Shown one piece after another: positions 10,731-24,000 of a stretch of 24,000 bases of DNA. Where the stretch lies: contig CAZYYK010000002.1 in assembly GCA_964651135.1 (NCBI GenBank), forward strand, positions 15,669 through 39,668. Reading direction: 5' to 3'. This DNA comes from an uncultured Gammaproteobacteria bacterium (GTDB lineage Bacteria; Cyanobacteriota; Vampirovibrionia; Gastranaerophilales; Gastranaerophilaceae). The notes below the pieces were generated by a model that did not search any database, was not told where the DNA came from, and saw only the letters and a program-made list of their open reading frames with translations. Within the stretch, counting starts at the first letter, position 1; every line of letters begins with the position of its first letter. The translations under genes were made by a program, and so were the position numbers.

Positions 10731-11993
10731 TTAAAAGATGCTTGGAATGGTTTTTGCTTGTATAATCCATGACTTCCTCCCACTAATCCTAGTCATATTA
10801 GCCATTTTAGGTGTCTTCATTCCTTTTGGTGCACTACTAAAATCAATTTTGTTTCCTTCTATGTCCATTAATATTGCATATCCAGTGGACATTCTACCTT
10901 TGATAAAATACTCATTGCCTAAATATTTCACCTTGTCAAATTTCCTAAATCCTTGTATTTTACCTGTAGGTATTCTTTGTTGACTTCTAACCCCCTTTGT
11001 TTGTTGGTAATCACCTTTAGGTATACACTTTTTTAATATTACTATATCTGATTTAAACCTAATATCTTTTCCTTGACTAGCAATCACCACAGCATCCATA
11101 TAATGTTCCTTTGGTAAGCCTATTACCTGTCTATGTTCTTTTGTGATAAAGCCAAAGGTTTCTTCTGCTTGTGGCAGTCGTCGGAGTAACTGTATTCTTA
11201 TGCTATTCATTTGGGTGGCATGTTTCAAATGTCCTTTAACTTTACCACCTTTTAGTACTATATCTCCCTTGTGCGCATGATCATGGCAAGTCTTACATAG
11301 TGTCATTAGGTTTTCTTGTTCATCTGAACCACCATCTTTCCTAAATACAATATGATGCACTTCTAATTTCTTTTCCTTGCTTTTACCTTTACAATTTTGG
11401 CAAGTATGATTATCTCTAGCTAAAACATATGCCTTAGTATTGGCAAACCCGTAGTTAATACCTCTTTGATACAACCACTTGTTTTTCAACACACTTGGAT
11501 TTTTCAAGGCATGAGGGTCAAATGTAGCAGTCTCTATTATTATTTTAGTTATGGGTAAAATAGTTTTAACAAAGTTAATCTCTTTCATATGACTGTCAAT
11601 TTTACTAATCATAGTTGGAGAGAATCTATCTATTTTAATACTGCTCTTTCTATTTAACCATCTTGGTTTCCTATATCTGGTCTTTCTACTCCTTCTATTC
11701 CTACGATATTTTGATCTCTGTGTCATTTTGTCTGATATGTCATTCCTAATTTCTACTTCTGATATATAGACAACTTCTTTCTTATCATTTACAACAGCAC
11801 TACCTATTTTACTACTTCCAGTATCTATTCCCAAAGTTAATTCTTGTGTATAATCAGTAGCCTCATAGAGTAACTTAATTGTAAATGGATTTCTTTTAAT
11901 ACATTTTGCCTTGGCTTGTTTTAATAATAATCTTGCTATTACTGGACTACAAGGCATTAAAGCTTTGTTTTCAGTTGATATTACATAAACCAT
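10731..11993 (-). CDS. iscB: IscB RNA-guided nuclease (RuvC split by HNH, Cas9-ancestor family)
   Basis: The 420-aa ORF carries, in order: a PLMP-like N-terminus (NKALMPCSP), RuvC-I LGIDTGSSKIGSAV and the Arg-rich bridge helix RSKYRRNRRSRKTRYRKPRW. These are followed by RuvC-II IIETATFD, HNH CQNC...LEVHHIVFRKDGGSDEQENLMTLCKTCHDHAH and RuvC-III EHYMDAVVIA. The C-terminus reads GFRKFDKVKYLGNEYFIKGRMSTGY. The RBS is AGGAGG, 7 nt before the ATG. Confidence 0.9.
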   Translation of the reverse strand: MVYVISTENKALMPCSPVIARLLLKQAKAKCIKRNPFTIKLLYEATDYTQELTLGIDTGSSKIGSAVVNDKKEVVYISEVEIRNDISDKMTQRSKYRRNRRSRKTRYRKPRWLNRKSSIKIDRFSPTMISKIDSHMKEINFVKTILPITKIIIETATFDPHALKNPSVLKNKWLYQRGINYGFANTKAYVLARDNHTCQNCKGKSKEKKLEVHHIVFRKDGGSDEQENLMTLCKTCHDHAHKGDIVLKGGKVKGHLKHATQMNSIRIQLLRRLPQAEETFGFITKEHRQVIGLPKEHYMDAVVIASQGKDIRFKSDIVILKKCIPKGDYQQTKGVRSQQRIPTGKIQGFRKFDKVKYLGNEYFIKGRMSTGYAILMDIEGNKIDFSSAPKGMKTPKMANMTRISGRKSWIIQAKTIPSIF

Positions 11994-12275
11994 AAATTAG
12001 CCTCCTAATAAATGCTCTACTATAAAGTAGGTTATGCGTATCTTATTACTTTGACCATAACAAGAATCCGTCCTCACTTCGATAATGATAAAATAGCTTA
12101 CATATATATTACACCGAGCCTTTCCATCAACTCTTCTTAATAATATATGACAGGGCAACAATCTAGTGCGTCAATTGAAGGTGTCATAACTATTCTATCG
12201 TAGCTAGTGTTTCTACTAGCTTAATCTGGTGAACTCAGGCTTTTGAAGCCACTACCCTTTAGGGTAGTTGGTAGT
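11994..12275 (-). ncRNA. candidate omega RNA (HEARO-type) of the IscB element
   Basis: This 282-nt ORF-free interval lies immediately 5' of iscB on the same strand, the canonical omega RNA location. It contains a dense set of hairpins. One is a 9-bp stem with one bulge at 12249-12271 (CCAACUACCC/GGGUAGUGG on the RNA strand). Others are GGCUU/AAGCC at 12238-12250, AGCUAGU/ACUAGCU at 12202-12221 and UAUGACA/UGUCAUA at 12146-12152 with 12182-12188. No covariance model was run. Confidence 0.6.
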
Positions 12276-14624
12276 TCACCTGATAGGGCATACTCCAGAT
12301 GCACATTCAGGGTCAGACTCTATATCTAGTTCTAAATCTTCAAACTCCTCCTCATTCTTTTCATACTTCTGAATTAGGTTGGGGTTAAAAGGTTTCAGCC
12401 CTTTCTTCATCTCTTTATATTCTTCTTCTGAGATAGCTTCATAAGGCATGAGCTGGTAGAATCCTCCATCATCTGGTAAGAAGGAAATCCCCACATAACT
12501 ATCCCAATTATTCCATAGCCACTCCTCTACATCATCCCACTCATCTGGTTTTACAGTCACCGTGATGGATGTATTTTGGTCTGTGTAGAAATCTTGGAAC
12601 ATCTTATAGGTTTCTAATTGCTCTACAGCTGTGAAGGAAGATTTGGTTCTTGTTACCCCACTTTCCACAGGGAATTCTACTACTTTGGTATTTACATTTT
12701 CCCCTTCTTGCCCTACTTCATTCTTAACTACCCAACCCAATTCCTCACAAACTTTGACAAGAGGGTCAGATGCAGAAATTCTGATTCTTCTGATAAAGAA
12801 GGGGGCGTGAGATGCATGGACTCCCGGGCTTACCCCTCCAAAAATCAAACCTAAAGTACCGTTGGGGGCTACAGTGGTAACATTGGTGGATTCATTTAGG
12901 TTATGGGTCTTGGCAATCTCTTTGTTAGCTTTATGAGCTACTTCTCTAAGTGAGGTGAGAATCTTTTCTTGTTCCTCTTTTGTAATGTTCGTTCGCTCTA
13001 CAAAATCTTTCCATCCAGTGATTCCACATCCAGTGAGTCTGTGTTCTTTTTGTACCCTATCCCATGTTGGTAGTTCAAGGTCTACCAACGTCATTCTATA
13101 TCCAGCTCTGGCTGATAGTTCCTGTGCCCTCTTAATTTTCTCTAAATCATAACCACCTTTCTCATCTACAAAAGAAGAGATGTTCAGGGAAGTGAGGTTG
13201 CAACATTGTCTGGACTTCAATAAGATTTCTCCACAAGCATTGGTTCCAGCAAACTCAGGGAATCTTTTTCTGGCTGCTTCCCCATTAATGATTCCCGGCT
13301 CTGCTGACAGTACCATAGTTTGGATAATGTCTTTTAGTTTTTCTCTGGTAGGTTTCTCATCAAATATAATACTGTTGTTTGACATCATTCTATGTAGTAG
13401 TTCTTCATTGGCTTTCCATTCCCCTTTCTTTTCATCTACCACATAGATATTGTCTTTGGCATGAATCATTTCTTCGTCATCTGGGTCAATAAAAGAGATA
13501 CAAGCACTTCTTCTTACTGCTCCTGATACTACATTCTCTGCAATGGAAGTACAGATATCCATTACATCAATGGGTTTTAATCTTCCCCCACTTTTAGTAA
13601 TGACTTTGTGAATCTTGTTGAACATCTTTTGGAGAGGCTTACTTCCACTGGCAAATCCACCAAACTTCATTAGTCTTTCTCCAGCAGGTCTTACATAATC
13701 ATAGTCAATGATAATGGTGTCAATAATTTTGTAAGCGTGCTGGGTATGAATTTCCATGAAGAAATCTAAGGCTTTGTGGAATCCTTCTTTGCTATCACCA
13801 ATGGTTAAGGTGGCTATATTCTTGTCTACAGTAAGCTGTGTGACATCCTCTCTGTCTTTCTTCTCTACAAAAGTCCATTGCTTATTAACTAAAAAAATGT
13901 CTGTGCGGAACTCTGGTAGTTTGTTGACGTATTTCTTTTGTGCCCCAATACCAATCCCCACTCCCAACATGAGAACATAGAACATCTCTCCAAAAATATA
14001 GATATCATCTACTGCTGTAAAAGAGCAGTTGAAGTTTTGTAAGGAAGATATTTTGGAGACTGGGCTCCCACCTGTGAATAGAGTTCTCCCACTAAGCTGT
14101 TGTCTACCATGATAAATGTTGTCAAACAACTCTTCTGCTTCTTCTTTTGTGCTGTAGGGAGAAAGGCTAATATTATAATCAACTGCTCTGGCAATGGATT
14201 CCCAGAATCTTTCTCTTCTCCCCTCTTCAGGAAGGTATCTACTATACGTTCTGTAGAAGGTGAAGCTAGCTACTTCATTGAGGGGGTCAGGAAGATGTTT
14301 ATACTTACTAAGAAACTCTTCACTAAGGAATTTGTATTTCTTTTCCTTCCCCACTTTTCTTAATCGATTCTTTTTAGAACGATACTCGATATAGTTCTTG
14401 GCTGTTTTGTAGAATCCTCCTGCCATTAACTTCTGCTCTACGAAGTCATGGATGTCGTTAACGGAAGGTAAGCCCATTTCTTTGCAATCTTTCTCTACTT
14501 CTTTGGCAATTCCTTTTATTTTGTCGGCATCTATCTCTTCTACATCTGCTGAAATGATGGCATTTACGATTTTATCTTTGTCAAACTTTTCGGTCTTTCC
14601 ATTTCTTTTTAGTACTTCTAACAC
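12276..14624 (-). CDS. nrdJ: class II (adenosylcobalamin-type) ribonucleotide reductase with N-terminal ATP-cone
   Basis: The ORF is 782 aa. Its N-terminus VLKRNGKTEKFDKDKIVNAI is ATP-cone-like. The active-site motif is TNACGEILL (class II NPCGEI type). The C-terminal redox pair is CASGVCPIR. No nrdB/F partner is nearby. The start is GTG at 14624..14622 after AAAGGAG. Confidence 0.8.
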   Translation of the reverse strand: MLEVLKRNGKTEKFDKDKIVNAIISADVEEIDADKIKGIAKEVEKDCKEMGLPSVNDIHDFVEQKLMAGGFYKTAKNYIEYRSKKNRLRKVGKEKKYKFLSEEFLSKYKHLPDPLNEVASFTFYRTYSRYLPEEGRRERFWESIARAVDYNISLSPYSTKEEAEELFDNIYHGRQQLSGRTLFTGGSPVSKISSLQNFNCSFTAVDDIYIFGEMFYVLMLGVGIGIGAQKKYVNKLPEFRTDIFLVNKQWTFVEKKDREDVTQLTVDKNIATLTIGDSKEGFHKALDFFMEIHTQHAYKIIDTIIIDYDYVRPAGERLMKFGGFASGSKPLQKMFNKIHKVITKSGGRLKPIDVMDICTSIAENVVSGAVRRSACISFIDPDDEEMIHAKDNIYVVDEKKGEWKANEELLHRMMSNNSIIFDEKPTREKLKDIIQTMVLSAEPGIINGEAARKRFPEFAGTNACGEILLKSRQCCNLTSLNISSFVDEKGGYDLEKIKRAQELSARAGYRMTLVDLELPTWDRVQKEHRLTGCGITGWKDFVERTNITKEEQEKILTSLREVAHKANKEIAKTHNLNESTNVTTVAPNGTLGLIFGGVSPGVHASHAPFFIRRIRISASDPLVKVCEELGWVVKNEVGQEGENVNTKVVEFPVESGVTRTKSSFTAVEQLETYKMFQDFYTDQNTSITVTVKPDEWDDVEEWLWNNWDSYVGISFLPDDGGFYQLMPYEAISEEEYKEMKKGLKPFNPNLIQKYEKNEEEFEDLELDIESDPECASGVCPIR

Positions 14625-14680
14625 CCTACCAACTCCTTTGATAATTTAGTGATAATTTTTTATTACCCCTATTAGGTAGC

Positions 14681-14707
14681 AAAAGGAACCCCCGTTAAGG
14701 GATTCCT
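14681..14707 (-). terminator. rho-independent terminator ending the 15450..14729 operon
   Basis: The minus-strand RNA folds as AGGAAUCCC-UUAAC-GGGGGUUCCU followed by UUUU. The 9-bp stem includes a U-G pair that only forms in the minus-strand transcript. Confidence 0.6.
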
Positions 14708-14728
14708 CTGCTATTTCTACTATTCTCC

Positions 14729-15253
14729 CTACAGTTCTGGGAGACCTTCTGCTACATCACTTTCTTCTGTGATGTTTTCTTCTTCTGTGATGTTTTCTTC
14801 TTCTGGGTTTGGAGGAAACTCCTCTTCGCCCATCATATCCATAATTTCTTGTGCGGTACTTTCATCTACCATTTCATCTTCTGGTTCTCCTTCCTCGTCA
14901 AACCCTTCAATCTGGTTCATAAGTCTTTGCATCACTTCAAATCCATTTAGACCATCTGGGAAGATTTCTTCTACTGTCTTTTCTCCTCCCACATTCTTCT
15001 TAGCAAACTTGCATAGCTCATGGATATTGATATCTCTGGTTTGCATCTGTAGTAGGTTTCTAAAGGACATGAGAAGAACCTTGGCTACGCTCTCTGTCAT
15101 TCCTGAAGCCATTCTATGGGTACCATTCTCTGTCGTTACATCCAACCAGTATCTGCCTTCATCCCTATCAACTCTGATGCAATGAATCTTTTCTGCAATA
15201 ACTACAAACTCATGGTTGTAGGAGGTGATATAGGTTTTCATTTCTTCTCCCAT
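14729..15253 (-). CDS. hypothetical protein with strongly acidic C-terminal half
   Basis: The 174-aa ORF has a C-terminus reading FDEEGEPEDEMVDES...EEEFPPNPEEENITEEENITEESDVAEGLPEL. It belongs to the early operon driven by the promoter at 15495..15536. Confidence 0.55.
   Translation of the reverse strand: MGEEMKTYITSYNHEFVVIAEKIHCIRVDRDEGRYWLDVTTENGTHRMASGMTESVAKVLLMSFRNLLQMQTRDINIHELCKFAKKNVGGEKTVEEIFPDGLNGFEVMQRLMNQIEGFDEEGEPEDEMVDESTAQEIMDMMGEEEFPPNPEEENITEEENITEESDVAEGLPEL
14762..14805. repeat. 18-bp tandem repeat TTCTTCTGTGATGTTTTC, about 2.4 copies
   Basis: Perfect copies lie at 14762-14779 and 14780-14797, followed by a partial copy. They encode the EENITE repeats of the acidic protein. 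Confidence 0.9.
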
Positions 15254-15255
15254 CT

Positions 15256-15450
15256 CTACACCGTTCCCAGTTTGTCAGAATGTACCTTCATGACTTCTTT
15301 TACTACTCGAGAAGTAACTTCTTCAATCACTTCTTTCAGATTGTCTTTATCTTCTACTACTACAACTTCTTTGTATTCAGCTCCAAAATAATCCTGATTA
15401 TTCTTTAGAGTAATTTTTGTGCTGAACTCTAACTCTTTTACCTTTGCCAT
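15256..15450 (-). CDS. hypothetical small protein
   Basis: I trimmed the track ORF 15256..15504. Its GTG start lies inside the promoter spacer. The ATG at 15450 (MAKVKELEF...) sits 8 nt after GAGGAG. The product is 64 aa. Confidence 0.5.
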   Translation of the reverse strand: MAKVKELEFSTKITLKNNQDYFGAEYKEVVVVEDKDNLKEVIEEVTSRVVKEVMKVHSDKLGTV

Positions 15451-15494
15451 TATTTTCTCTCCTCTCTTTCTTCTGTATTTCTTACGGTATACAT

Positions 15495-15536
15495 AGTGTA
15501 TCACATATTTTATCTTTTGTCAACTTTAAGTGGTGT
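15495..15536 (-). promoter_or_regulatory. sigma-A-type promoter with upstream ACACCACT box
   Basis: The minus strand reads ACACCACT (15536..15529), TAAAG, TTGACA (15523..15518), a 17-nt spacer AAAGATAAAATATGTGA, then TACACT (15500..15495). Confidence 0.6.
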
Positions 15537-15568
15537 GCTTGTACTTTACAATATTTTACAATTATTGA

Positions 15569-16048
15569 CTAAATTCCTAAGCGATTCAGTCTCTTTATCT
15601 TTTCCTCCTTCTCTGGGTCATCTATCTTGATATCAAACACTCCTCTCTTTAACCACTTCCTGAATTTCACTATCATGTGAACTTGGTCTCTTCTAAACCA
15701 TCTTCCTTTGATTCCTTTAGCATTATAGTTCCTGTAGTAGAAGGGGAGCTGGGGAGTGGTCTCAGGTTTCCAATACTCAGGGTTCTCGTACCAATTATAG
15801 TAATGCTTGAATCTTGTCATAGAGATTCCTGTTAGATTGGGTATGTGCCAGTGAGCGATAATAGGGAAACCAATTCTGGGTACTCTCTTGTTCATCTCCA
15901 TCCACTCAATTAGAACCTGATAATCTAAGGGTAAATCTGTATAGGGTCTTTCTAAGGATTGATTGATGACTGTATGGCTTACTGTTTTCTTTCCCTCTAC
16001 CTCATCTACCAAATCCCGTAGAAACTTTTTTACTAATTCATTCTCCAT
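15569..16048 (-). CDS. hypothetical protein (Trp/Tyr/Arg-rich)
   Basis: This 159-aa ORF has the RBS AAAGGAGGGGA before the ATG at 16048 and its own promoter at 16073..16116. No motif was recognised. Confidence 0.55.
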   Translation of the reverse strand: MENELVKKFLRDLVDEVEGKKTVSHTVINQSLERPYTDLPLDYQVLIEWMEMNKRVPRIGFPIIAHWHIPNLTGISMTRFKHYYNWYENPEYWKPETTPQLPFYYRNYNAKGIKGRWFRRDQVHMIVKFRKWLKRGVFDIKIDDPEKEEKIKRLNRLGI

Positions 16049-16072
16049 CTTCTCCCCTCCTTTTCTGTTTAT

Positions 16073-16116
16073 AGAATATCATATCTATTCAGGAAATGCA
16101 ACCCTAAAAGTGGTGG
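16073..16116 (-). promoter_or_regulatory. candidate sigma-A-type promoter with CCACCACT box
   Basis: The minus strand reads CCACCACT (16116..16109), 7 nt, TTGCAT (16101..16096), a 17-nt spacer, then TATTCT (16078..16073). It is divergent from the promoter at 16133. Confidence 0.45.
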
Positions 16117-16132
16117 ATGAGTATTTTCTTTT

Positions 16133-16175
16133 ACACCACTTCTAAATTGCTTTTCAGTTTATTTGTTTGTATAAT
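16133..16175 (+). promoter_or_regulatory. sigma-A-type promoter with ACACCACT box
   Basis: The sequence reads ACACCACT (16133-16140), 6 nt, TTGCTT (16147-16152), a 17-nt spacer, then TATAAT (16170-16175). Confidence 0.55.
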
Positions 16176-16181
16176 AAAGGC

Positions 16182-16362
16182 AAGGTAGCAAGGAGTGAAA
16201 TGTTAAAGACCCACTTACACCTACGGGAATATTCGGAACATATTCTAAACACAACTAATCAAGGGATTTCGCACACCGTCCACAAACTTCTTTAAGGTTT
16301 GTGGATGAGAGGACTGCTCCTTGCTTACCTACTCTTGAGGTTCTCGATGAGCCTCTTTTTTT
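16182..16362 (+). ncRNA. candidate structured small RNA (~180 nt), alternatively mRNA of a 31-codon sORF
   Basis: The unit is bounded by the promoter at 16133-16175 and the terminator at 16337-16362. A 13-bp closing stem pairs 16183-16195 (AGGTAGCAAGGAG) with 16317-16330 (CTCCTTGCTTACCT, one bulge). Internal hairpins are GAATAT/ATATTC (about 16227-16245) and CCACAAAC/GTTTGTGG (about 16280-16304). The sORF ATG 16200 to TAA 16295 (MLKTHLHLREYSEHILNTTNQGISHTVHKLL) has its AAGGAG buried in the closing stem. Confidence 0.4.
16337..16362 (+). terminator. rho-independent terminator
   Basis: The stem GAGGTTC (16337-16343) pairs with GAGCCTC (16349-16355), 7 bp including one G-U, with loop TCGAT. Seven T residues follow at 16356-16362. 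Confidence 0.65.
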
Positions 16363-16489
16363 ATACCTTGAATCAATTATATATTTATACATAAGTATGA
16401 ATAATTATATCACTTTATTATAAGTTTTTATTTTCTTATGTGCATCTGTGTGTACATAATAGTTAGTGTAAAAACGTGAAGAGCTTAGA

Positions 16490-16563
16490 TTTCAACGTTT
16501 AGTGATAAAAGCACTTTAGTCGGGTGGGGTGAATAAAATTCATTTCGCTATTTTTCAACGTTT
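16490..16563. repeat. direct 11-bp repeats TTTCAACGTTT (two perfect copies, 63 bp apart)
   Basis: The copies lie at 16490-16500 and 16553-16563, with a degenerate third copy TTTCAATGGTT at 16640-16650. The first copy can pair with AAACGTGAA at 16472-16480. Confidence 0.6.
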
Positions 16564-16656
16564 CTTACTTTTTAGGGCATTTTTAGTTGTAAATAGTGTA
16601 GTTTTTACAAGTAATGACAAAAGCTCACAAATGGCTTGATTTCAATGGTTACAGCC

Positions 16657-16699
16657 ACACCACTATAAAATTGACAAAACCTATTTTACGGTGTATAAT
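16657..16699 (+). promoter_or_regulatory. consensus sigma-A promoter with ACACCACT box
   Basis: The sequence reads ACACCACT (16657-16664), 6 nt, TTGACA (16671-16676), a 17-nt spacer ending in GTG, then TATAAT (16694-16699). Confidence 0.65.
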
Positions 16700-16815
16700 A
16701 AAGACACCCCGAAGGGAAAACACCCACCCGTAGGGTGGGGCTATAAATCTACCGCTGTATTTAATACCTGCTAAAACCATATAGCTATTATTTACTGTAA
16801 TATTTTTTAGCTGAG

Positions 16816-16850
16816 TCTTTTTCTTTTAATCTTTTTCTTTTAATCTTTTT
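16816..16850. repeat. 14-bp polypyrimidine tandem repeat TCTTTTTCTTTTAA, 2.5 copies
   Basis: Copies lie at 16816-16829 and 16830-16843, with a partial copy at 16844-16850. Confidence 0.9.
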
Positions 16851-16957
16851 AGGTTCACCAGAGTATAAGTATAGTTAGCATCGCTATAGTATTAGATTTC
16901 TCTCTTCCCCCAATCACTGACATGATTGGTAAAATATCTCCCAAATATTAGATGATA

Positions 16958-17007
16958 AAGTTATCAACATTTGCACCAACATTTGTGGATAACTTTGTTG
17001 ATAACTT
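16958..17007. promoter_or_regulatory. DnaA-box-like cluster inside a 12-bp inverted repeat
   Basis: TTATCAACA lies at 16961-16969 (+). TGTGGATAA at 16984-16992 is a perfect TTATCCACA on the minus strand. TGTTGATAA at 16996-17004 is TTATCAACA on the minus strand. A 12-bp inverted repeat pairs AAGTTATCAACA (16958-16969) with TGTTGATAACTT (16996-17007). The direct repeat CAACATTTG occurs twice between them. Confidence 0.5.
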
Positions 17008-17045
17008 AGGGGAATGAAGAATAACTACTAACACTACTACTACTA

Positions 17046-17088
17046 ACACCACTGAAAGATTGCTTTTTCTATAGATAGCAGATATACT
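17046..17088 (+). promoter_or_regulatory. sigma-A-type promoter with ACACCACT box, upstream of endonuclease gene
   Basis: The sequence reads ACACCACT (17046-17053), 6 nt, TTGCTT (17060-17065), a 17-nt spacer, then TATACT (17083-17088). Confidence 0.55.
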
Positions 17089-17135
17089 ACCCAAGTAGCT
17101 GAAGATGTGGAGCTAAGCAGCTTAGGAGTGATAAG

Positions 17136-17549
17136 ATGACAAATAAAATAGGATTAATGGGGGGAGCCTTTGTAATCGCTAACTTTATTGATATGGGAAT
17201 ACCAGTGTACACCCCAGTAGATAAGAGTGGTAAGGTAGATTTGTTAGCCTACTTTGATGGAGAGTATCAGAGAATACAAGTAAAGTCCAGTGGTACAGTT
17301 AGTTTGCATGAGACAGATGCCAGTAAAGGTATGTATACTTTTAAGTTAGTAGAGGATAATTTGAATAAGAATGGGTATAGTAAACACATATATACGAAAG
17401 ATGATATAGATTATTTTGCACTGTATCATGTTACCAGACACACTATGTTTCTCATTCCTGTAGAGGAAGCCCTTGCTCAAAATATTACTTTTAGTTTTGG
17501 TATTGGTGGTTATAATGATGAAATAGAGAGTGAGTATCGTTTTAATTGA
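17136..17549 (+). CDS. PD-(D/E)XK endonuclease of the group-I-intron-associated (I-Ssp6803I-like) type, free-standing
   Basis: The 137-aa ORF has the pattern G..G..V.......G..VY.P......VDLLAYFDGEYQRIQVKSS ... IDYFALY......FLIPVEE, matching my recollection of the PDDEXK_5 family (D...QxK core). The RBS GGAG lies 7 nt before the ATG. Confidence 0.55.
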   Translation: MTNKIGLMGGAFVIANFIDMGIPVYTPVDKSGKVDLLAYFDGEYQRIQVKSSGTVSLHETDASKGMYTFKLVEDNLNKNGYSKHIYTKDDIDYFALYHVTRHTMFLIPVEEALAQNITFSFGIGGYNDEIESEYRFN

Positions 17550-17625
17550 TTTCTTAGCAAGAATTCTCCCACTTATAGAAGGTGGGAGATGAATTGCTAA
17601 TATATTATTTCACAAGGAGGAATAA

Positions 17626-18357
17626 ATGAATTTTGAAGAAAGAGATAAAGTAAAAAACTTACTTAATGTAGGTGATAAAGGATATGTTCGCTTAGTAGAT
17701 ACACTAGGTAGCGATTTGACTGCTGCAAATGCAGCCAGAGTGTCTTATGCGAAGGAATCAAAAGAACTTAGTGATAAAGATATTCGTTTGATTCACTTCC
17801 TTGGTAGAGAAAATCATACTTCTCCTTTTCGCCACGCTATTCTTCAATTTGAAGTATACGCTCCTCTTATGGTAGCACGACAATGGTGGAAATACGTCAT
17901 TGGTTCACATCATCAAGAGGGCATTGCTGATAGTTTGAACGCTTGGAATGAGTCGAGTCGCAGATACATTGCTGAAGAAGTTGAATTCTACTTACCTAAA
18001 GAGGGAGAATGGCGTTCCGCTCCAGAGAACTCAAAGCAAGGTAGTGGAGAGCCTTTTGATACGGATAAAGGTAGGACTTTTACAGAATCGTTAGAGCAGT
18101 ATCAAGAATTAGGAAAACGTCTTTATAATTCAGTTGTTGCACAAGGAGTAGCAGTTGAACAAGCAAGACTTTTCCTCCCTGCATATGGACTTTATGTTCG
18201 TTGGTATTGGACTGCATCTCTTCAATCTGTATTTCATTTCGTAGATCAGAGAACTAAGCATGATGCTCAAAGTGAGATTCAAGATTACGCAAGGGTAGTA
18301 GAAACACTCGCAAAAGAACATTTTCCAGAATCTTTTATCGCTTTAGGAAAGAAATAG
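17626..18357 (+). CDS. thyX: flavin-dependent thymidylate synthase (ThyX fold) with atypical signature motif
   Basis: The ORF is colinear with Thermotoga ThyX as I recall it: GYVRLVDTLGSDLTAANAARVS, HTSPFRH, APLMVARQW, NESSRRY, EQARLFLP, DAQSEIQDYA. The RHR of the ThyX motif reads KYV here, and about 8 residues are inserted before NESSRRY. Confidence 0.85.
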   Translation: MNFEERDKVKNLLNVGDKGYVRLVDTLGSDLTAANAARVSYAKESKELSDKDIRLIHFLGRENHTSPFRHAILQFEVYAPLMVARQWWKYVIGSHHQEGIADSLNAWNESSRRYIAEEVEFYLPKEGEWRSAPENSKQGSGEPFDTDKGRTFTESLEQYQELGKRLYNSVVAQGVAVEQARLFLPAYGLYVRWYWTASLQSVFHFVDQRTKHDAQSEIQDYARVVETLAKEHFPESFIALGKK

Positions 18358-18432
18358 CAATTTTTTTAAGTGAGGTGAATTCATGGTGAAATCCAAGCAG
18401 TTCACTTGATTTCTCTCCAATTAACTAAAATA

Positions 18433-18474
18433 ACACCACTTAGAATTGACAAATAGAAAGATATGTGATATAGT
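18433..18474 (+). promoter_or_regulatory. sigma-A-type promoter with ACACCACT box
   Basis: The sequence reads ACACCACT (18433-18440), 5 nt, TTGACA (18446-18451), a 17-nt spacer ending in ATATGTGA, then TATAGT (18469-18474). A 9-bp leader hairpin TATAGCCTT/AAGGCTATA lies at 18495-18522. Confidence 0.6.
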
Positions 18475-18577
18475 ATAGATAGATGGGGAGGGGATATAGC
18501 CTTGACTACCATCAAGGCTATAAGATATTACCGTAAACAGAATGGGCTAAACCAGTGAAAAAAGAGGAGTCGGAAGA

Positions 18578-19396
18578 ATGAAATTAAACACCATTTCTAA
18601 TGAAGATTGTTTAGAAGGCAAGAAGCAAATGCAATTAGATGAAATTGAATTCAAAGAAATAACCAAAGAAGAAACAAAAGAGATTTTATTGAACTACCAT
18701 TATTTGCAAAGAATGCCTCCTTTGTCAGTAGCTTTTGGTGCTTTTCATTCAGGGAGGTTGGTCGGTGTCATGACTTTTGGGAAACCACCCAGCAACTCTC
18801 TTTGTAAAGGGGTGGCTGGTGAAAGTTTTTCAGGTAATGTATATGAATTAAATAGGTTGTATACATTTGAGGACACACCAAAAAATCTTGAGAGTAAATT
18901 TATATCCTACGCATTAAAAAAATTAAAACAACGGAACTGGATAGTAATTTCCTATGCAGATGAGTCTATGGGGCATAGTGGTTATGTTTACCAAGCGACT
19001 AATTGGATTTATACAGGTAAATCAGCTAAGCGAACAGATGTATACGTTGGGGAAAATGGACATTCGAGAACATATTCTAATTTTCAAAAAGACTTTGTTG
19101 TGCGAAAAGTTCGCTCCACCAAACATAGATACTTATACATATGTGGGGATAAAAATTTCAAAAAAGAAGTGTTGGAGAATCTGAAATACCCAATTATAAA
19201 TGAGTATCCTAAAGGTGAAGTTAGACATTATGAAGTTGGCGAAACAACGAATGATATTTTATACCACAAAAAGACTCATGAAATATTTACGGAAGATGAA
19301 TTTATTAAAAATCCGTCAAAATATCTTTCGGAAGATGAGTTAAATTACTATAAGAAATATTATTTGCCAGAATCAGAAGTGTTAACGTTATTCTAA
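18578..19396 (+). CDS. putative Mom-like GNAT-fold DNA-modification protein (adenine methylcarbamoylation family), moderate assignment
   Basis: The 272-aa ORF has the pattern LNYHYLQRMPP..FGAF..GRLVGVMTFGKP....ELNRL......N.ES.FIS.AL..L......IVISYADESMGHSGYVYQATNWIYTGKS. This matches my recollection of Mom-family/GNAT-like phage proteins. It was not verified by search. Confidence 0.45.
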   Translation: MKLNTISNEDCLEGKKQMQLDEIEFKEITKEETKEILLNYHYLQRMPPLSVAFGAFHSGRLVGVMTFGKPPSNSLCKGVAGESFSGNVYELNRLYTFEDTPKNLESKFISYALKKLKQRNWIVISYADESMGHSGYVYQATNWIYTGKSAKRTDVYVGENGHSRTYSNFQKDFVVRKVRSTKHRYLYICGDKNFKKEVLENLKYPIINEYPKGEVRHYEVGETTNDILYHKKTHEIFTEDEFIKNPSKYLSEDELNYYKKYYLPESEVLTLF

Positions 19397-19435
19397 AAAG
19401 AGAGAACAAAATAAAAACCAATGGATTTGGAGGGA

Positions 19436-19468
19436 AAGAAAAAGGAGATGAGAACTAACTCATCTCCT
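19436..19468 (-). terminator. rho-independent terminator at the end of the lysis operon (possibly bidirectional)
   Basis: A perfect 10-bp stem pairs AGGAGATGAG (19443-19452) with CTCATCTCCT (19459-19468) around a 6-nt loop. On the minus strand the stem is followed by TTTTT (19443-19439). Confidence 0.65.
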
Positions 19469-19505
19469 AATTTAATAACTTTACATCTTGAATGTAAAGA
19501 AGAAA

Positions 19506-20117
19506 TTAATCTCTGGATTGCACATGAACGTTTCCAGAACCTCCACCATCCAACATTTCTCGAATGGCTTCTACATCCTCATCATTACTTACATAATCCT
19601 CCTCCACTACATCCACAGGTACATTATGTGCATCCTCCCCAAATTCCTCTTTATACCCTTCATCAGGGAGTTCTTCAGGATATTCACAATCCTTTTGAAT
19701 GGGTACAGCAACAGGAACTACCTCTACATCACCATACTTTTTAGATTCATTGATTTGAGATTCAATCTCTGCTTCAATAAATACCGTAAAGTCTTTGTGC
19801 ATCTTTTCAACAGCTGCCCTACCTTCAGCATCTACTTGCTGTTCAACCAATTTCTTAGTTCGATAGAAAGCTTCACGCATTGCTTCCTCATCAAACTTTC
19901 CTTCCTTCTTCAGTTCATCAACAAATCGTTGATTGGTGAAGTTAATGGAACGGGCAATGGTTTGCAGTACCATTTGTACATTTTCTCGTACATCTTCATT
20001 CTTAATATTCTCCGTTTTCTTTAAGAAGAAATTAAGAGCTACCAGTACCAGAGCTACCAGTGCAGGAGAAAGTACAGCAATGGCAATTCCACCCAAAAAT
20101 CCAACATCCAAATTCAT
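19506..20117 (-). CDS. membrane protein, LL-H-type holin-like, with long acidic C-terminal tail
   Basis: The N-terminal TM segment is FLGGIAIAVLSPALVALVLVALNFFL. The helical region ending in FIEAEIESQI resembles the LL-H holin family. The gene lies directly downstream of the endolysin gene. The C-terminus is rich in D/E. Confidence 0.5.
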   Translation of the reverse strand: MNLDVGFLGGIAIAVLSPALVALVLVALNFFLKKTENIKNEDVRENVQMVLQTIARSINFTNQRFVDELKKEGKFDEEAMREAFYRTKKLVEQQVDAEGRAAVEKMHKDFTVFIEAEIESQINESKKYGDVEVVPVAVPIQKDCEYPEELPDEGYKEEFGEDAHNVPVDVVEEDYVSNDEDVEAIREMLDGGGSGNVHVQSRD

Positions 20118-20143
20118 AACATTACCTCCGTATATTTTATTTT

Positions 20144-21622
20144 CTAACCCTTAGCATTAAAGGGAACAGGAATAAATTCATTTTCCCAATCTTTTATCTT
20201 TCTATTATCCGCAATAAAAGCACTTACTGTTTTCTCATCTTCCTCTTTTCCTACCCCAACTTTAATGAAGATGTAGTAAGGATAGATGTTTTCATTCCCT
20301 ACATAGATGATTCTCTGGAACAGTTCTGTAGGAGTCATCCCATAGTCGAATTGTACAGCACCACTCACTTCTTTAATGATTTGATTCACATACTTTTGAT
20401 GGGATGCCTGAAGAGTGAATACACCAAATCTGGGTTGCATCTTGAGTAACTCTTCTTTTGTGAAGGCTTTATTGAGATAAATTTTCTTATCTTCTTCTTC
20501 CTTCTCTTTCTTTTTCACTTGCTCATCAAACAAATAAAGCTTATTTCTTTCAATGACATCATCTAATTTCTTCTTATAGTTAGGGTCAGTCGCATAGGTA
20601 CCAGTAAGAGCTTCTGTAGCTTCCTTATAATCCTTAGCTACTAACACAGGGGCATATAACTTTTCCCTTGTGGGGGTAGAAGTAAAGAATTTCCCATGGT
20701 CTGTAATGGACTCTTTCCAATCCTTATATTTTCTAAAGGAGGATTTAACTTCCCTCTTAGAGCCGTTAATATATTCAATAGAAACCTTATCATATACAGC
20801 CCCAGTCCACGGAGCAGATGCCTTAATCCCAAATATGTTATTAGCATGAACTGCCAACACACTATTCCCACTATCACTCTCTAAAATAGCTTGAGCTAAG
20901 GAGATAGAAGGTAACACTCCACTCTTGTAGTAATCAGCAATGATATCATCTCGAATCATATTGATAAAAGCGGGGGTAGTAAGAGTCGTTCTTTCTATCG
21001 GTTTAGTTTTTTTTACCCCATAGTGTTCAGCTACTACTCTTGCTACTTCTTTAGCTAAAGCATCTCTTTTATTCACTATGAAATCTCTATCCTGTCGATT
21101 AGTATGATAAGCAAACTCAATTAGCATCCCCATAGGAGCTTCACTTGCCCTTAACACACCAAAATAGTTAGATTGATAGGGGGGAGAAGTAACATTGGTT
21201 TTATATACATTATTATTATTCCATGTCCTAACTCCTCTATTCGGAGTACCTAATGCACTTATCGCTCTGGACAATTTCCATGCTAAATCATATCCAGATT
21301 GTCCTACACTCTTCCAAGGATTGGTATCAGGAAATATCTCAACTCCTCGAACATTAGAAGCCCCAGCATTGGAGTGGAGAGAAAGAAGTAAATCATATCC
21401 TTTCGCCATAGCACCCCTTTGAGCTAAGGTAGGATTCTCATGGATAGTTTTCCTTGTCCTTCCTACAGTAATTCCATAGGCTTTAAGCTCTCTTTCTAAA
21501 GCAATAGCCATATAGTAATTAGACTCCCCTTCATTTCCCGGGCTAAGAAATCCTCTATTATGAGAAGAACCAGAACCATGTCCGGGGTCTAACAATACTT
21601 TTAATTCAGCCATACTATTCAC
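20144..21622 (-). CDS. bifunctional endolysin: N-acetylmuramoyl-L-alanine amidase (Amidase_3) + glucosaminidase domain + C-terminal domain
   Basis: The amidase motifs are KVLLDPGHGSG, LLLSLHSNAG, VEIF and LIEFAYHTN. The glucosaminidase motif is SLAQAILESDSGNS..ANNIFGIKA. The ORF is 492 aa, with RBS AAAGGAGGTG. Confidence 0.85.
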   Translation of the reverse strand: MNSMAELKVLLDPGHGSGSSHNRGFLSPGNEGESNYYMAIALERELKAYGITVGRTRKTIHENPTLAQRGAMAKGYDLLLSLHSNAGASNVRGVEIFPDTNPWKSVGQSGYDLAWKLSRAISALGTPNRGVRTWNNNNVYKTNVTSPPYQSNYFGVLRASEAPMGMLIEFAYHTNRQDRDFIVNKRDALAKEVARVVAEHYGVKKTKPIERTTLTTPAFINMIRDDIIADYYKSGVLPSISLAQAILESDSGNSVLAVHANNIFGIKASAPWTGAVYDKVSIEYINGSKREVKSSFRKYKDWKESITDHGKFFTSTPTREKLYAPVLVAKDYKEATEALTGTYATDPNYKKKLDDVIERNKLYLFDEQVKKKEKEEEDKKIYLNKAFTKEELLKMQPRFGVFTLQASHQKYVNQIIKEVSGAVQFDYGMTPTELFQRIIYVGNENIYPYYIFIKVGVGKEEDEKTVSAFIADNRKIKDWENEFIPVPFNAKG

Positions 21623-21660
21623 CTCCTTTTATAGTAAAATAGATTAATACACTAAAGTAT

Positions 21661-21702
21661 ATCATACCACACTTTAACAATAAATGCAATTTTTGTGGTG
21701 TG
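21661..21702 (-). promoter_or_regulatory. candidate sigma-A-type promoter with CACACCAC box upstream of endolysin gene
   Basis: The minus strand reads CACACCAC (21702..21695), AAAAA, TTGCAT (21689..21684), a 17-nt spacer ending in TGTGG, then TATGAT (21666..21661). Confidence 0.5.
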
Positions 21703-21729
21703 AATTTTTACAGAAGCATTACAGAAGCA

Positions 21730-22134
21730 TTACATAAACAGATTAGGGAAAGCAACCCCTAACAAGTAGGTGACAAAAGCAGCTGTAATTGCCCATATAA
21801 TCTTACTTTCCACGGCTCTTCTTTTCGATAAAGGTTCAGAAAGGTGGTCATCTATTCTCATATCTCTAATTTCCTTCATCTCTTCATTATTTTTTTGAGC
21901 CATTTCTCTAAGGAGAACTGTTAACTCTTTAATTTCAGTTTTAATTTCACGTAGAGCCTGTTCCACTGTCATACCTTGTTGCTTCAGTAATTCCACATCC
22001 GTATCTAATCTCTTAATGGCAACTTCTGAACTTCTTACATCAGCTTTTAATTCATCCAATTCTTCACTTAGGGAAAGAACATCCTTATCTAAAGCACTTA
22101 CTCTTTCTTCTACTCTTGGTAATCTTTCTTGCAC
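21730..22134 (-). CDS. XhlA-like lysis-associated membrane protein (coiled coil + C-terminal TM)
   Basis: The 134-aa ORF has an N-terminal coiled coil (RVEERVSALDKDVLSLSEELDELKADV...) and a single C-terminal TM segment (IIWAITAAFVTYLLGVAF). It lies immediately upstream of the endolysin, as in PBSX-type cassettes. Confidence 0.5.
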   Translation of the reverse strand: MQERLPRVEERVSALDKDVLSLSEELDELKADVRSSEVAIKRLDTDVELLKQQGMTVEQALREIKTEIKELTVLLREMAQKNNEEMKEIRDMRIDDHLSEPLSKRRAVESKIIWAITAAFVTYLLGVAFPNLFM

Positions 22135-22178
22135 TGAGACCCCACCTCCTTTTTGTATATTTTATACTTAACTACCAT

Positions 22179-22529
22179 TTAGCAGACCTTGTCCACAATA
22201 TCAACCACTATCTTAAAAGGTTTATTATTCACCCATGTCCTAACAATGCTTCTTTCAGCATTAGAATATTCAATATCATAACTATAAGAACCTGTTGCTA
22301 AGTTTTCTGTATCTTGTGGGTCTATTTGAATGATTGCTGTACCATCTTCTCTAATCACTGCCCTCTTACAGAAAGCATACACTGAGTCCTTACTTCTTTT
22401 CTTTACCCCAAAATGTATTACAGAATCAGGGGGAAAAGGAATTTTAACACCTTCTTTATAATTACTAATAGAAAGAGCAAAACTATCCCCCCTGACTAAT
22501 GTAATGGCAAGGGTTTTATTATCAATCAT
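22179..22529 (-). CDS. hypothetical phage protein (beta-rich, possibly structural)
   Basis: The 116-aa ORF has the pattern LVRGDSF.L.I........F..DSVIHFGVKK......K.AVIREDGTAIIQIDPQDTENLATGSYSYDIEY, reminiscent of small Ig-like phage virion domains. No firm family was assigned. Confidence 0.4.
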   Translation of the reverse strand: MIDNKTLAITLVRGDSFALSISNYKEGVKIPFPPDSVIHFGVKKRSKDSVYAFCKRAVIREDGTAIIQIDPQDTENLATGSYSYDIEYSNAERSIVRTWVNNKPFKIVVDIVDKVC

Positions 22530-22726
22530 CTAATCAACCCCATTATTGTAATTACTGTAAATTTTCCCATTGTCCGTCTTTTAGTACAAACACATCTTCA
22601 ATAGGCTTCCATACACCATCTTTCAACACGAAACCAGACTCAGCTTCCATCCACTGACCATCCCACAGGATGCGCTGGTTTTTAGGGTTCGGGGTAGATG
22701 TAGGGCCACCTCCTAGAAAAATATTC

Positions 22727-22864
22727 TTACTTAGGTATTCTAGGTGTTGTCATAATCATACCTTTTTCATCTACTGTAATTCTTTTCAAGGTTACCATAG
22801 TATCTAAATAATCTTCTTCAATCCTATTCATAATCCACATATTCAATAGAAAAGCATAAATCAT
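22727..22864 (-). CDS. XkdX-like small phage protein (45 aa), below the ORF-track size cutoff
   Basis: The ORF runs from ATG 22864..22862 to TAA 22729..22727 and reads MIYAFLLNMWIMNRIEEDYLDTMVTLKRITVDEKGMIMTTPRIPK. The W..g.i..E..l...V...rIT.dE pattern resembles the XkdX family. Its start abuts the stop of the upstream ORF. Confidence 0.4.
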   Translation of the reverse strand: MIYAFLLNMWIMNRIEEDYLDTMVTLKRITVDEKGMIMTTPRIPK

Positions 22865-22865
22865 T

Positions 22866-23180
22866 TTACATACCTCCCATTAATAAGAACAATAAAGTAT
22901 CTTCTGCCATTTGTAGCCTCTCTTCCAAATCTGGTGTAGGCAATAATCCTTCTTTTGCAATAGCTAAATTCAGCCATTTATCATAGTTGTATTCCACATC
23001 TAGCTTTAATCCCTCCCTATAAGGTACTTCTATTGAATAATAATCATACTCGAATATTATTCCTACCTCATCTTCTTGTGTTTCTACTTCTCTGATGTTA
23101 TTAAATAGAGAAATAATAGCATTATCTCCCACCTTATCAACTTCAAATAGCCTTGGCTTTATTCCGCTTTCTGCTTTCAT
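22866..23180 (-). CDS. hypothetical phage protein (occupies the XkdW-like slot before the XkdX-like ORF)
   Basis: This 104-aa ORF overlaps the 3' end of the RT gene by 38 nt. No motif was recognised with confidence. Confidence 0.45.
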   Translation of the reverse strand: MKAESGIKPRLFEVDKVGDNAIISLFNNIREVETQEDEVGIIFEYDYYSIEVPYREGLKLDVEYNYDKWLNLAIAKEGLLPTPDLEERLQMAEDTLLFLLMGGM

Positions 23181-24000
23181 TACTAACCACCTCTTTCATG
23201 TCTTTTATATCTACATAAGGTTTTATATTTTTAAGATAATAATTGTATGAATTACTATGTTTTAACCACCCTAAGTAACTCAACATAGCAGCGCTATCTT
23301 TAAAATTTAATTTTTCTTTCTTGTAAATCTTTTTAGCCCTTCTCTTTATTCTTAATGCGTTTCTTTTTCTCATCGTTACATGAGTTCTGTAAAATTTAAA
23401 GCCTAGAAAATCTAAAGGTCTTTTATCTAACCGATATACTTGCCAATTATGTTTTAAGTTTAATCCTATGGTTTCTAAATATATTTCTATTTCTTTTCTT
23501 GCTTTGTGTAGTTTCTTCTTGTTGTTTCCAAATAATATGCAGTCATCCATGTACCTAACATAATATTTAATATTCAACTTTTCTTTAATCATATGGTCGA
23601 ACTCTTGTAAGTAGAAATTAGCTAACCATTGAGAGGTATAGTTGCCTATAGGCAATCCTTTTTCTACACTATCGATGATTGCATCCAGTAGCCAAAGTAA
23701 GTCTTTATCCTTAAATTTCTTCCTAAGAAATTCTTTAAGGACATCATGATTAATTGAAGGATAGAATTTAGTAATATCTATTTGTAGTACATATTTAGTA
23801 TGTTTTCTATCTCGTTTAACCCATCTTTTAACTCTCTTTTGTGCATAATGAATACCACGTTTTGGGATACTACCACAAGAATATTCATACATTCCTTTAG
23901 CCATATAAGGCTCTATAATTTGCATGATTGCCCAGTGAATACATTGGTCTGGATAAAATTTAGGCTTAAATATAACCCTTTCCTTGCCACTGGCACCATC
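23143..24000 (-). CDS. diversity-generating retroelement (DGR) reverse transcriptase, N-terminus beyond the right window edge
   Basis: The frame stays open upstream of the track ATG to position 24000 (...DGASGKERVIFKPKFYPDQCIHWAIMQIIEPY, RT motifs 1-2). Other motifs are KFYPSINHDVL and GLPIGNYTSQWLANFYL (the DGR-specific IGxxxSQ in place of QGxxxSP). RYMDDCILFG, LKHNWQVYRL..LDFLGFKF and LSYLGWLKHSNSYN are also present. The ORF is colinear with Bordetella phage BPP-1 Brt as I recall it. Confidence 0.85.
   Translation of the reverse strand, partial: DGASGKERVIFKPKFYPDQCIHWAIMQIIEPYMAKGMYEYSCGSIPKRGIHYAQKRVKRWVKRDRKHTKYVLQIDITKFYPSINHDVLKEFLRKKFKDKDLLWLLDAIIDSVEKGLPIGNYTSQWLANFYLQEFDHMIKEKLNIKYYVRYMDDCILFGNNKKKLHKARKEIEIYLETIGLNLKHNWQVYRLDKRPLDFLGFKFYRTHVTMRKRNALRIKRRAKKIYKKEKLNFKDSAAMLSYLGWLKHSNSYNYYLKNIKPYVDIKDMKEVVSNESRKRNKAKAI

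Follow-up and report, generated by a model that had tools for sequence, protein, structure and literature searches.

Reverse Transcriptase Gene at the Edge of the Window

The analyzed stretch of 24,000 nucleotides (nt) of contig CAZYYK010000002.1, hereafter referred to as the window, ends within a minus-strand gene for a reverse transcriptase (RT) of the type found in diversity-generating retroelements (DGRs). The corresponding open reading frame (ORF) at 23143..24000 (minus strand) comprises the C-terminal 285 sense codons followed by a stop; its translation has no stop up to the window edge, and the frame thus runs past position 24000, as the initial annotation of this DNA had stated. Since full-length relatives of this RT are 355–357 amino acids (aa) long, about 71 N-terminal codons are expected beyond 24000, and the complete protein should have about 357 aa. 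The visible part matches the Pfam family RVT_1 (E=4e-19) and PHROG 1423 'Reverse transcriptase' (E=6e-99), the nearest relative of known structure is the Brt protein of Bordetella phage BPP-1, and a database search returned 4065 homologues at E<=1e-3.

The RT motifs named in the initial annotation, including LPIGNYTSQ and YMDD, were all located in the translated ORF. On the minus strand these are ERVIFKP (23962-23982) and YPDQCIHWA (23929-23955), motif 3 with the first catalytic aspartate (QIDITKFYPS, 23755..23784, aligned with KSDFSKFFPS of Brt), motif 4 (LPIGNYTSQ, 23629..23655, aligned with IPIGSLTSQ of Brt), which represents the [I/L/V]GxxxSQ signature of DGR RTs, and motif 5 of the palm, YVRYMDDCILFG, with the catalytic YMDD (23527..23562, aligned with ARYMDDIVVLG of Brt). 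The C-terminal region is marked by LNLKHNWQV (23437-23463), LDFLGFKF (23392-23415) and LGWLKHSNS (23248-23274). The GxxxSQ form of motif 4 is characteristic of DGR RTs, whereas GxxxSP is typical of group II and retroviral RTs (PMC11054128).

The proposed colinearity of the C-terminal region with Brt was borne out by a phmmer alignment of near full length, in which residues 3–323 of the full-length relative P0130 (95% identical to the window RT) align to residues 4–316 of the 328 in PDB chain 8ub7_A (E=2.7e-30, 109 bits). This is the best PDB match, and the sequence of chain 8ub7_A agrees completely (100% identity) with that of BPP-1 brt; the next PDB matches are a group II RT (1.7e-18) and a 'retron-type' RT (1.3e-17). 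Among cultured phages, the RTs nearest to the window RT in tblastn searches belong to Lactobacillus phage LBR48 (55% identity) and Butyrivibrio phage Arawn (46%), followed by crAss-like phages, Faecalibacterium phage FP_Epona and the Bordetella phages, including BPP-1. Codon differences between the window RT and its ortholog in the related locus L092 comprise 82 synonymous and 23 non-synonymous changes, and another comparison with a relative gave 90 and 32, respectively; the predominance of synonymous differences shows purifying selection on the gene. Family scores, motif 4 and the Brt match all agree, and the assignment of the window RT to the DGR class is thus supported at the level of sequence.

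Template and Variable Repeats in Related Loci

The window stops inside the RT gene, and the remaining parts of the cassette are therefore described from related loci. We scanned 82 such loci (designated by L numbers) that have sufficient sequence upstream of the RT and encode RTs with 38–96% identity to the window RT; their hosts are mostly metagenome-assembled genomes of Clostridia and Bacilli, together with Levilactobacillus and three cultured phages. In the loci with 85–96% identical RTs (L002, L003, L005, L006, and L092–L095), a direct repeat pair of about 110 nt was found upstream of the RT. The RT-proximal copy, the template repeat (TR), ends about 118–124 nt ahead of the RT start, and the distal copy, the variable repeat (VR), begins 206–213 nt further upstream. 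Mismatches between the two copies fall almost exclusively at TR adenines: 18 of 18 in L002, 18 of 18 in L003, 19 of 19 in L005, 27 of 28 in L006, and 16/17, 20/21, 24/26 and 22/22 in L092 to L095, respectively. Across the whole set, a TR/VR pair was detected in 67 of the 82 loci; TR adenines account for 894 of the 932 mismatches, and the distance from the TR end to the RT start is about 100–140 nt in this wider family. The 3′ ends of the repeats in the relatives, e.g., GGGTCTCGAC, are GC-rich and invariant between TR and VR. Moreover, L005 and L092–L096 have nearly identical TRs, and every one of their VRs is distinct from the others at adenine positions; this combination of constant templates with differing VRs is a signature of ongoing diversification and, as far as can be read from the sequences, indicates recent activity in the relatives.

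No TR- or VR-like copy was detected in the window, where the best match to the relatives' TRs covers 35 of 79 non-A positions and equals background, compared with 74–79 of 75–79 non-A positions in the control loci; the statement of the initial annotation that TR and VR are not visible in the window is thus upheld. The contig of L004, which is 99.99% identical to window positions 12179-22964, ends at the equivalent of 22964 inside the gene downstream of the RT. Searches for exact copies of the 104-aa protein encoded by that gene and of two RT versions shortened at the N-terminus gave no match, nor did exact DNA patterns in viral, metagenome and genome collections or a megablast comparison with cultured phages.

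Several further features of the repeat region were recorded in the related loci. Ten of them (L018, L022–L024, L028, L033, L040, L042, L044, and L045) have at least three tandem diverged copies of a 110–170-nt unit upstream of the RT, with mismatches that are not confined to adenines; these units may represent repeated C-terminal modules or multiple VRs. In some relatives (L002:10001-11314 and P0011), the TR and the spacer share the reading frame of the RT and no stop intervenes, and gene callers then give 'RTs' of 437–439 aa that start with a TR-encoded peptide; two stops separate the TR/spacer frame from the RT in L001 and L005–L007. The assemblies of L001, L004, L007, L008, L016, and L096–L099 break at or beside the cassette, and several contigs begin less than about 200 nt from the RT, as would be expected if the TR/VR repeats and the hypervariable VR caused assembly to fail.

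Target Gene, Hairpin, and Spacer RNA

In the related loci, the VR closes a tail-fiber-like ORF of 350–1036 aa and ends 1–21 nt before the ORF stop. A profile of the last 200 residues of the target matches two variable proteins of DGRs in the part that holds the VR, namely TaqVP (5VF4, 1e-6) and Mtd (0.05), which suggests a C-type-lectin-type tip similar to those of Mtd and TaqVP. A hairpin with a G5/C5 stem and a 4–5-nt loop was found 20–30 nt past the VR in 46 of 61 loci, as against 2 of 61 past the TR.

The spacer between TR and RT contains the Rfam motif RT-18 (RF03021) in all seven family loci tested, where it lies directly 5′ of the RT start and scores 52–67 bits against a gathering score of 41.3; the spacer RNA of FP_Epona is RT-4. 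In BPP-1, the motif RT-10 was placed between TR and RT by Weinberg et al. (2017; PMC5737381). No specific assignment of RT-18 to DGRs was made in that study, where a role of further RT motifs in DGRs was a matter of speculation (PMC5737381). The Rfam motif RT-18 can now be assigned to the TR–RT spacer of the present DGR lineage.

Absence of Avd

About 74% of DGRs have the accessory protein Avd; its sequence conservation is poor, and a highly divergent Avd could escape family searches. The initial annotation expected an Avd partner next to the RT, and this expectation did not hold in the relatives. The spacing of 160–280 nt between VR and TR leaves no room for an avd gene, and neither the genes within 10 kb on either side in L001–L003, L005–L006, and L092–L096 nor direct scans gave an Avd-type match in Pfam or NCBIfam. 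DGRs of this kind have precedents: the TR–RT architecture with no accessory gene accounts for 75 of 372 DGRs in the survey of Wu et al. (2018), who also described one lineage without avd altogether and inferred an Avd-independent form of mutagenic homing (PMC5758913), and Cornuault et al. found no Avd in phage Epona (PMC5883640).

RT-Overlapping Gene Family and the Exchangeable Module

The gene immediately downstream of the RT, at 22866..23180 (minus strand), encodes a 104-aa acidic protein with an isoelectric point (pI) of 4.2, and its first 38 nt (23143-23180) lie within the 3′ end of the RT gene, exactly the overlap that the initial annotation had described. Homologues collected by phmmer, jackhmmer and hidden Markov model searches overlap the RT stop by 22–64 nt in 56 RT-anchored loci, and no homologue was found elsewhere in those loci except for one weak match to the C-terminal domain alone. 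In protein-seeded contexts (P0142, P0194, P0220, and P0228), an RVT_1 gene lies directly upstream with an overlap of 38–47 nt, the exceptions being four short contigs that end before the RT position. At least four different phage backbones carry an identical 104-aa protein, and codon differences between this gene and its relatives comprise 25–40 synonymous and 14–19 non-synonymous changes. The long forms of the family (140–180 aa; median 162 aa, mean pI 4.7) carry a C-terminal PF16778 Phage_tail_APC (tail assembly chaperone) domain, and some sources name them accordingly.

The AlphaFold model of the 104-aa protein (predicted local distance difference test score, 79.5) is built of four strands and three helices, and no fold match to it was found in PDB (best E=0.09, template modeling score 0.26); its fold matches in BFVD are uncharacterized gut-phage proteins. 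At the sequence level, the family has no match among cultured-phage proteins, to the second fiber-chaperone pair in L006, or to the RT-downstream ORFs of LBR48 or Epona. A structural resemblance of the 104-aa protein to Avd was considered and rejected, as the model shows a mixed β/α fold and not a four-helix bundle; the protein is also acidic.

Weak BFVD matches were obtained to 111-aa and 114-aa proteins of the crAss-like phages cr55_1 and cr50_1 (E=0.008 and 0.024, respectively); because cr55_1 has a second coding sequence of 111 aa, its BFVD match may or may not be the gene next to the RT. In the same phages, ORFs of 111 aa (L100:4516-4851, cr55_1) and 114 aa (L101:1572-1916, cr50_1) overlap the stop of a DGR RT by 17 and 26 nt, respectively. 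These RT-overlapping ORFs share with the 104-aa family an in-register motif 'NIEEV / DIEEV ... Y.YE'; the hhalign comparison of the two groups is likewise in register, at a non-significant E of 0.05–0.1.

We propose that the 104-aa gene most likely encodes a partner of the diversified fiber, of the fiber-assembly-chaperone type, that is co-translated with the RT. More tentatively, the protein could have a dedicated function in phage DGRs that lack avd, either as a stand-in for Avd in the synthesis of complementary DNA (cDNA) or in homing, or as a specialized folding chaperone of the fiber tip, and it may be related to 'CH1', an accessory protein of Bacteroides DGRs; the adjacency to the RT in every context examined, the joint transfer with the RT and the motif shared with crAss-like phages are consistent with such a dedicated function.

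Next to the RT-coupled gene, a 45-aa ORF at 22727..22864 (minus strand) occupies an XkdX-like position and has a weak match to phrog_29872 (E=0.0097). An ORF of 43–45 aa follows the RT-coupled gene in L001–L003, L005–L007, and L092–L099, and the ORF at the same position in phage FP_Epona is annotated as 'XkdX family protein'. The similarity relationships of the window switch in this region. By megablast, the backbone relative L002 is 95% identical up to position 22613 and not beyond, and the cassette relatives L005–L007 and L092–L096 are 85–90% identical from 22743 or 22764 to 24000 (90% from 22743 in L005–L007) and not before; the contigs that share the cassette are otherwise unrelated to the window. 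The junction between the cassette module and the phage backbone, a mosaic breakpoint zone, was accordingly placed at 22614..22764. Because backbone and cassette similarities switch at this junction, the RT forms one module with the two small genes that follow it (104 and 45 aa), and this module is exchanged between backbones. This bears on the earlier view of the RT as embedded in the late operon: co-expression with the downstream gene is shown by the 38-nt overlap, but this downstream gene is linked to the RT everywhere and is exchanged with it as a module, and it does not belong to the generic backbone.

Assignment of the RT and Alternative Explanations

The window ORF very probably encodes the RT of a phage DGR of the avd-less type, with the gene order target–TR–RT. 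Several observations count against this assignment. TR, VR, spacer RNA and target gene are all missing from the window itself, and the cassette is seen in relatives; 15 of the 82 loci gave no clean TR/VR pair under the criteria used (some of these have tandem VR-like repeats, and the LBR48 record begins just upstream of the RT); the closest relatives have GTA or ATA in place of an ATG or GTG start codon; and the absence of Avd weighs against taking over the biochemical priming mechanism of BPP-1. Because the BPP-1 priming scheme depends on Avd, and none was found here, that scheme is not simply transferable to the present lineage.

Other classes of RT were weighed against the DGR assignment. 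One possibility is a group II intron that has inserted into the late region and encodes the protein as its maturase; it is suggested by the top NCBIfam match by score, TIGR04416 (group II RT/maturase, 121.6 bits), and by the group II RTs that are its second-best PDB relatives. However, this score lies well under the cut-off of 300 bits, the RT of about 357 aa has no maturase (X) or endonuclease extension and is colinear with Brt at its C-terminus, and Rfam detects no RNA domains of group II introns, either in the window or in nine related loci, but does detect RT-18 in relatives; moreover, the gene that overlaps the RT stop leaves no space for intron domains V–VI. We therefore regard an intron origin as extremely improbable. 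Only slightly more credible, and still highly unlikely, is a defense-associated (UG/Abi/DRT) or retron RT carried by the phage. PADLOC scores the RT core as generic 'RT' (109–123 bits), RT_UG17 (100–104 bits) and Drt3a (87 bits), and one JGI homologue bears the source label 'retron-type reverse transcriptase'; yet the PADLOC matches are limited to the common RT core (e.g., positions 21–298 of the 429-position UG17 profile), and the NCBIfam scores of 76.7, 55.1 and 40.4 bits for Drt3a, Drt2 and Drt5 fall far below the respective cut-offs of 200, 390 and 550. The same holds for the retron families NF038233 (St85; 69.9 bits vs. a cut-off of 235) and NF038237 (26.7 vs. 450), and an Rfam scan found no retron msr/msd RNA in the window. 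The reading is further disfavored by the adenine-specific TR/VR pairs of the orthologous loci and by motif 4, which has the form IGxxxSQ. The group II intron, retron and DRT/UG identities were thus dropped, their scores being below the family cut-offs and their partner RNAs missing.

A different kind of alternative accepts the DGR RT and holds that the cassette in the window genome is decaying or inactive, with TR/VR lost or the RT untranslated. The part upstream of 24000 lies beyond the window, and fragmented or deleted RT genes are known in some phage DGRs (PMC11054128). In addition, the nearest relatives deviate at the expected start codon. This position, which follows the Shine-Dalgarno sequence AGGAAGTGA, is occupied by ATG in L001 and GTG in L002; it is GTA in L005:9692-9697, L006:9692-9697 and L007:90-95, and ATA at L092:2082, L093:8970, L094:1798, L095:2001 and L096:289. 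The approximately 95 codons after the GTA or ATA stay open and conserved, gene callers report RTs of only 250–262 aa, and RT expression in this clade may be low or unusual. Against decay stand the 285 visible RT codons, which are free of stops and keep all catalytic motifs, and the predominance of synonymous over non-synonymous codon differences noted above for the RT. Among the GTA/ATA relatives themselves, adenine positions vary from one VR to another and the TRs are near constant, which points to recent activity. Loss of function in the window genome is therefore considered improbable, and a DGR RT of the target–TR–RT type is retained as the preferred explanation.

Predicted Cassette Layout and Proposed Mechanism

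The layout beyond the window edge was predicted by mapping L006 onto the window. By this analogy, the minus strand past 24000 should carry, in order, the remainder of the RT gene, an RT-18-type element, the TR, the hairpin, and the VR within the target gene. The RT-18-type structured spacer RNA would lie about 220–295 nt past 24000, the TR of about 110 nt at about 330–440 nt and the VR at about 540–645 nt, all on the minus strand; a G5/C5 hairpin, also on the minus strand, is predicted between TR and VR from its position in the relatives. The VR should form the last approximately 36 codons of a tail-fiber-like receptor-binding protein of about 500–560 aa with a C-type-lectin-type tip. For the window genome, we infer this same set of upstream parts and an active element. 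The initial annotation had likewise described a DGR RT with its partners just past 24000 and a tail-fiber-type gene as the diversified target, and the relatives, with VR, TR and RT directly adjoining and adenine mismatches between the repeats, argue for this arrangement by analogy. Its placement of the RT at the end of the tail module fared less evenly: the position next to a tail gene is seen in the relatives, and the window contains no tail gene, the region downstream of the RT being made up of small ORFs and a lysis cassette.

The mechanism proposed here is taken over from the Bordetella phage paradigm. TR and spacer would be transcribed together, and the RT would synthesize cDNA from the TR RNA with misincorporation at template adenines. 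This cDNA would then replace the VR, presumably with the hairpin and the conserved, GC-rich 3′ terminus of the repeat as guides. As a result, the fiber tip, and hence the host range, would be diversified, with the TR kept intact.

Thus, the phage represented by the window very probably diversifies its receptor-binding fiber; predictions of its host range should take this into account, and assemblies should expect a hypervariable region. The conserved family of RT-overlapping genes is a concrete candidate for a protein that assists mutagenic homing where Avd is lacking. The finding is of practical value chiefly for annotation and of modest wider interest.

Other Features of the Window

The lysis cassette downstream of the small ORFs includes an endolysin gene (amidase/glucosaminidase, 20144-21622) and a holin-like gene (19506-20117), both identified by family searches. 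The same searches assigned a three-gene plus-strand block at 17136-19396, which encodes a PD-(D/E)XK nuclease, ThyX and a Mom-like protein; beyond this block lies a minus-strand replication module. The Mom-family protein (272 aa, 18578-19396, plus strand; PF25680, 3e-39) adjoins ThyX and hints at DNA base modification in the window phage, as judged from its family match. The 1.1 kb between the replication block and the plus-strand block (16049-17135) have no ORF of 80 aa or more and no tRNA; only short repeats were found there, including TGTATAATAAAG(G/A)CA, which occurs twice.

Within the replication module, a 420-aa ORF at 10731-11993 (minus strand) has RRXRR (PF14239, 1.6e-52) and HNH domains. 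It is preceded on the same strand by a HEARO RNA (RF02033, 12070-12279), which Rfam scores at 115 bits against a gathering score of 83. The RNA and the ORF are located directly after the ribonucleotide reductase gene, and the 5′ end of the RNA overlaps the stop of that gene by about 4 nt. By its composition, the region 10731-12279 (minus strand) looks like an IscB-omegaRNA (OMEGA) element.

Comparison With Known Systems

The avd-less TR–RT architecture and the occurrence of DGRs in phages of gut Firmicutes have already been described, and the present system can be compared with several known ones. The DGR of Bordetella phage BPP-1 has the order mtd–avd–TR–brt, and its RT is homologous to the window RT over the whole length, with IGxxxSQ and YMDD in common. 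The relatives of the window further share with BPP-1 the adenine-specific differences between the repeats, a receptor-binding tail gene whose 3′ end holds the VR and whose tip is Mtd-like, a hairpin past the VR, and a structured RNA in the TR–RT spacer. However, they have no avd between target and TR or nearby, and their spacer RNA is RT-18 and not RT-10. Further differences from BPP-1 are the small acidic RT-overlapping gene, the Firmicutes-type hosts and the low similarity of the RTs.

Architecture A1 (TR–RT) of Wu et al. (2018; PMC5758913) is closer in layout, with target, TR and RT on one strand and no avd, HRDC or MSL gene. No accessory gene is listed in A1, whereas the system described here has a conserved gene that overlaps the RT. 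Among the accessory proteins of the same survey, the acidic CH1 (160–169 aa, pI 4.7) resembles the long forms of the 104-aa family in size and pI, and it was reported only from a Bacteroides lineage (PMC5758913).

The cultured phages FP_Epona, a published DGR phage (PMC5883640), LBR48 and Arawn differ from the window in that their RTs are only 39–55% identical to the window RT and their RT-downstream ORFs have no detectable homology to the 104-aa family; in FP_Epona, the spacer also carries RT-4 in place of RT-18. On the other hand, all of the TR/VR mismatches fall at adenines in FP_Epona (13 of 13) and Arawn (9 of 9), and the three phages have the same order of genes as the present system, in which a tail or fiber gene is followed by the TR, the RT, a small RT-overlapping ORF, an XkdX-like ORF and the holin/endolysin genes.

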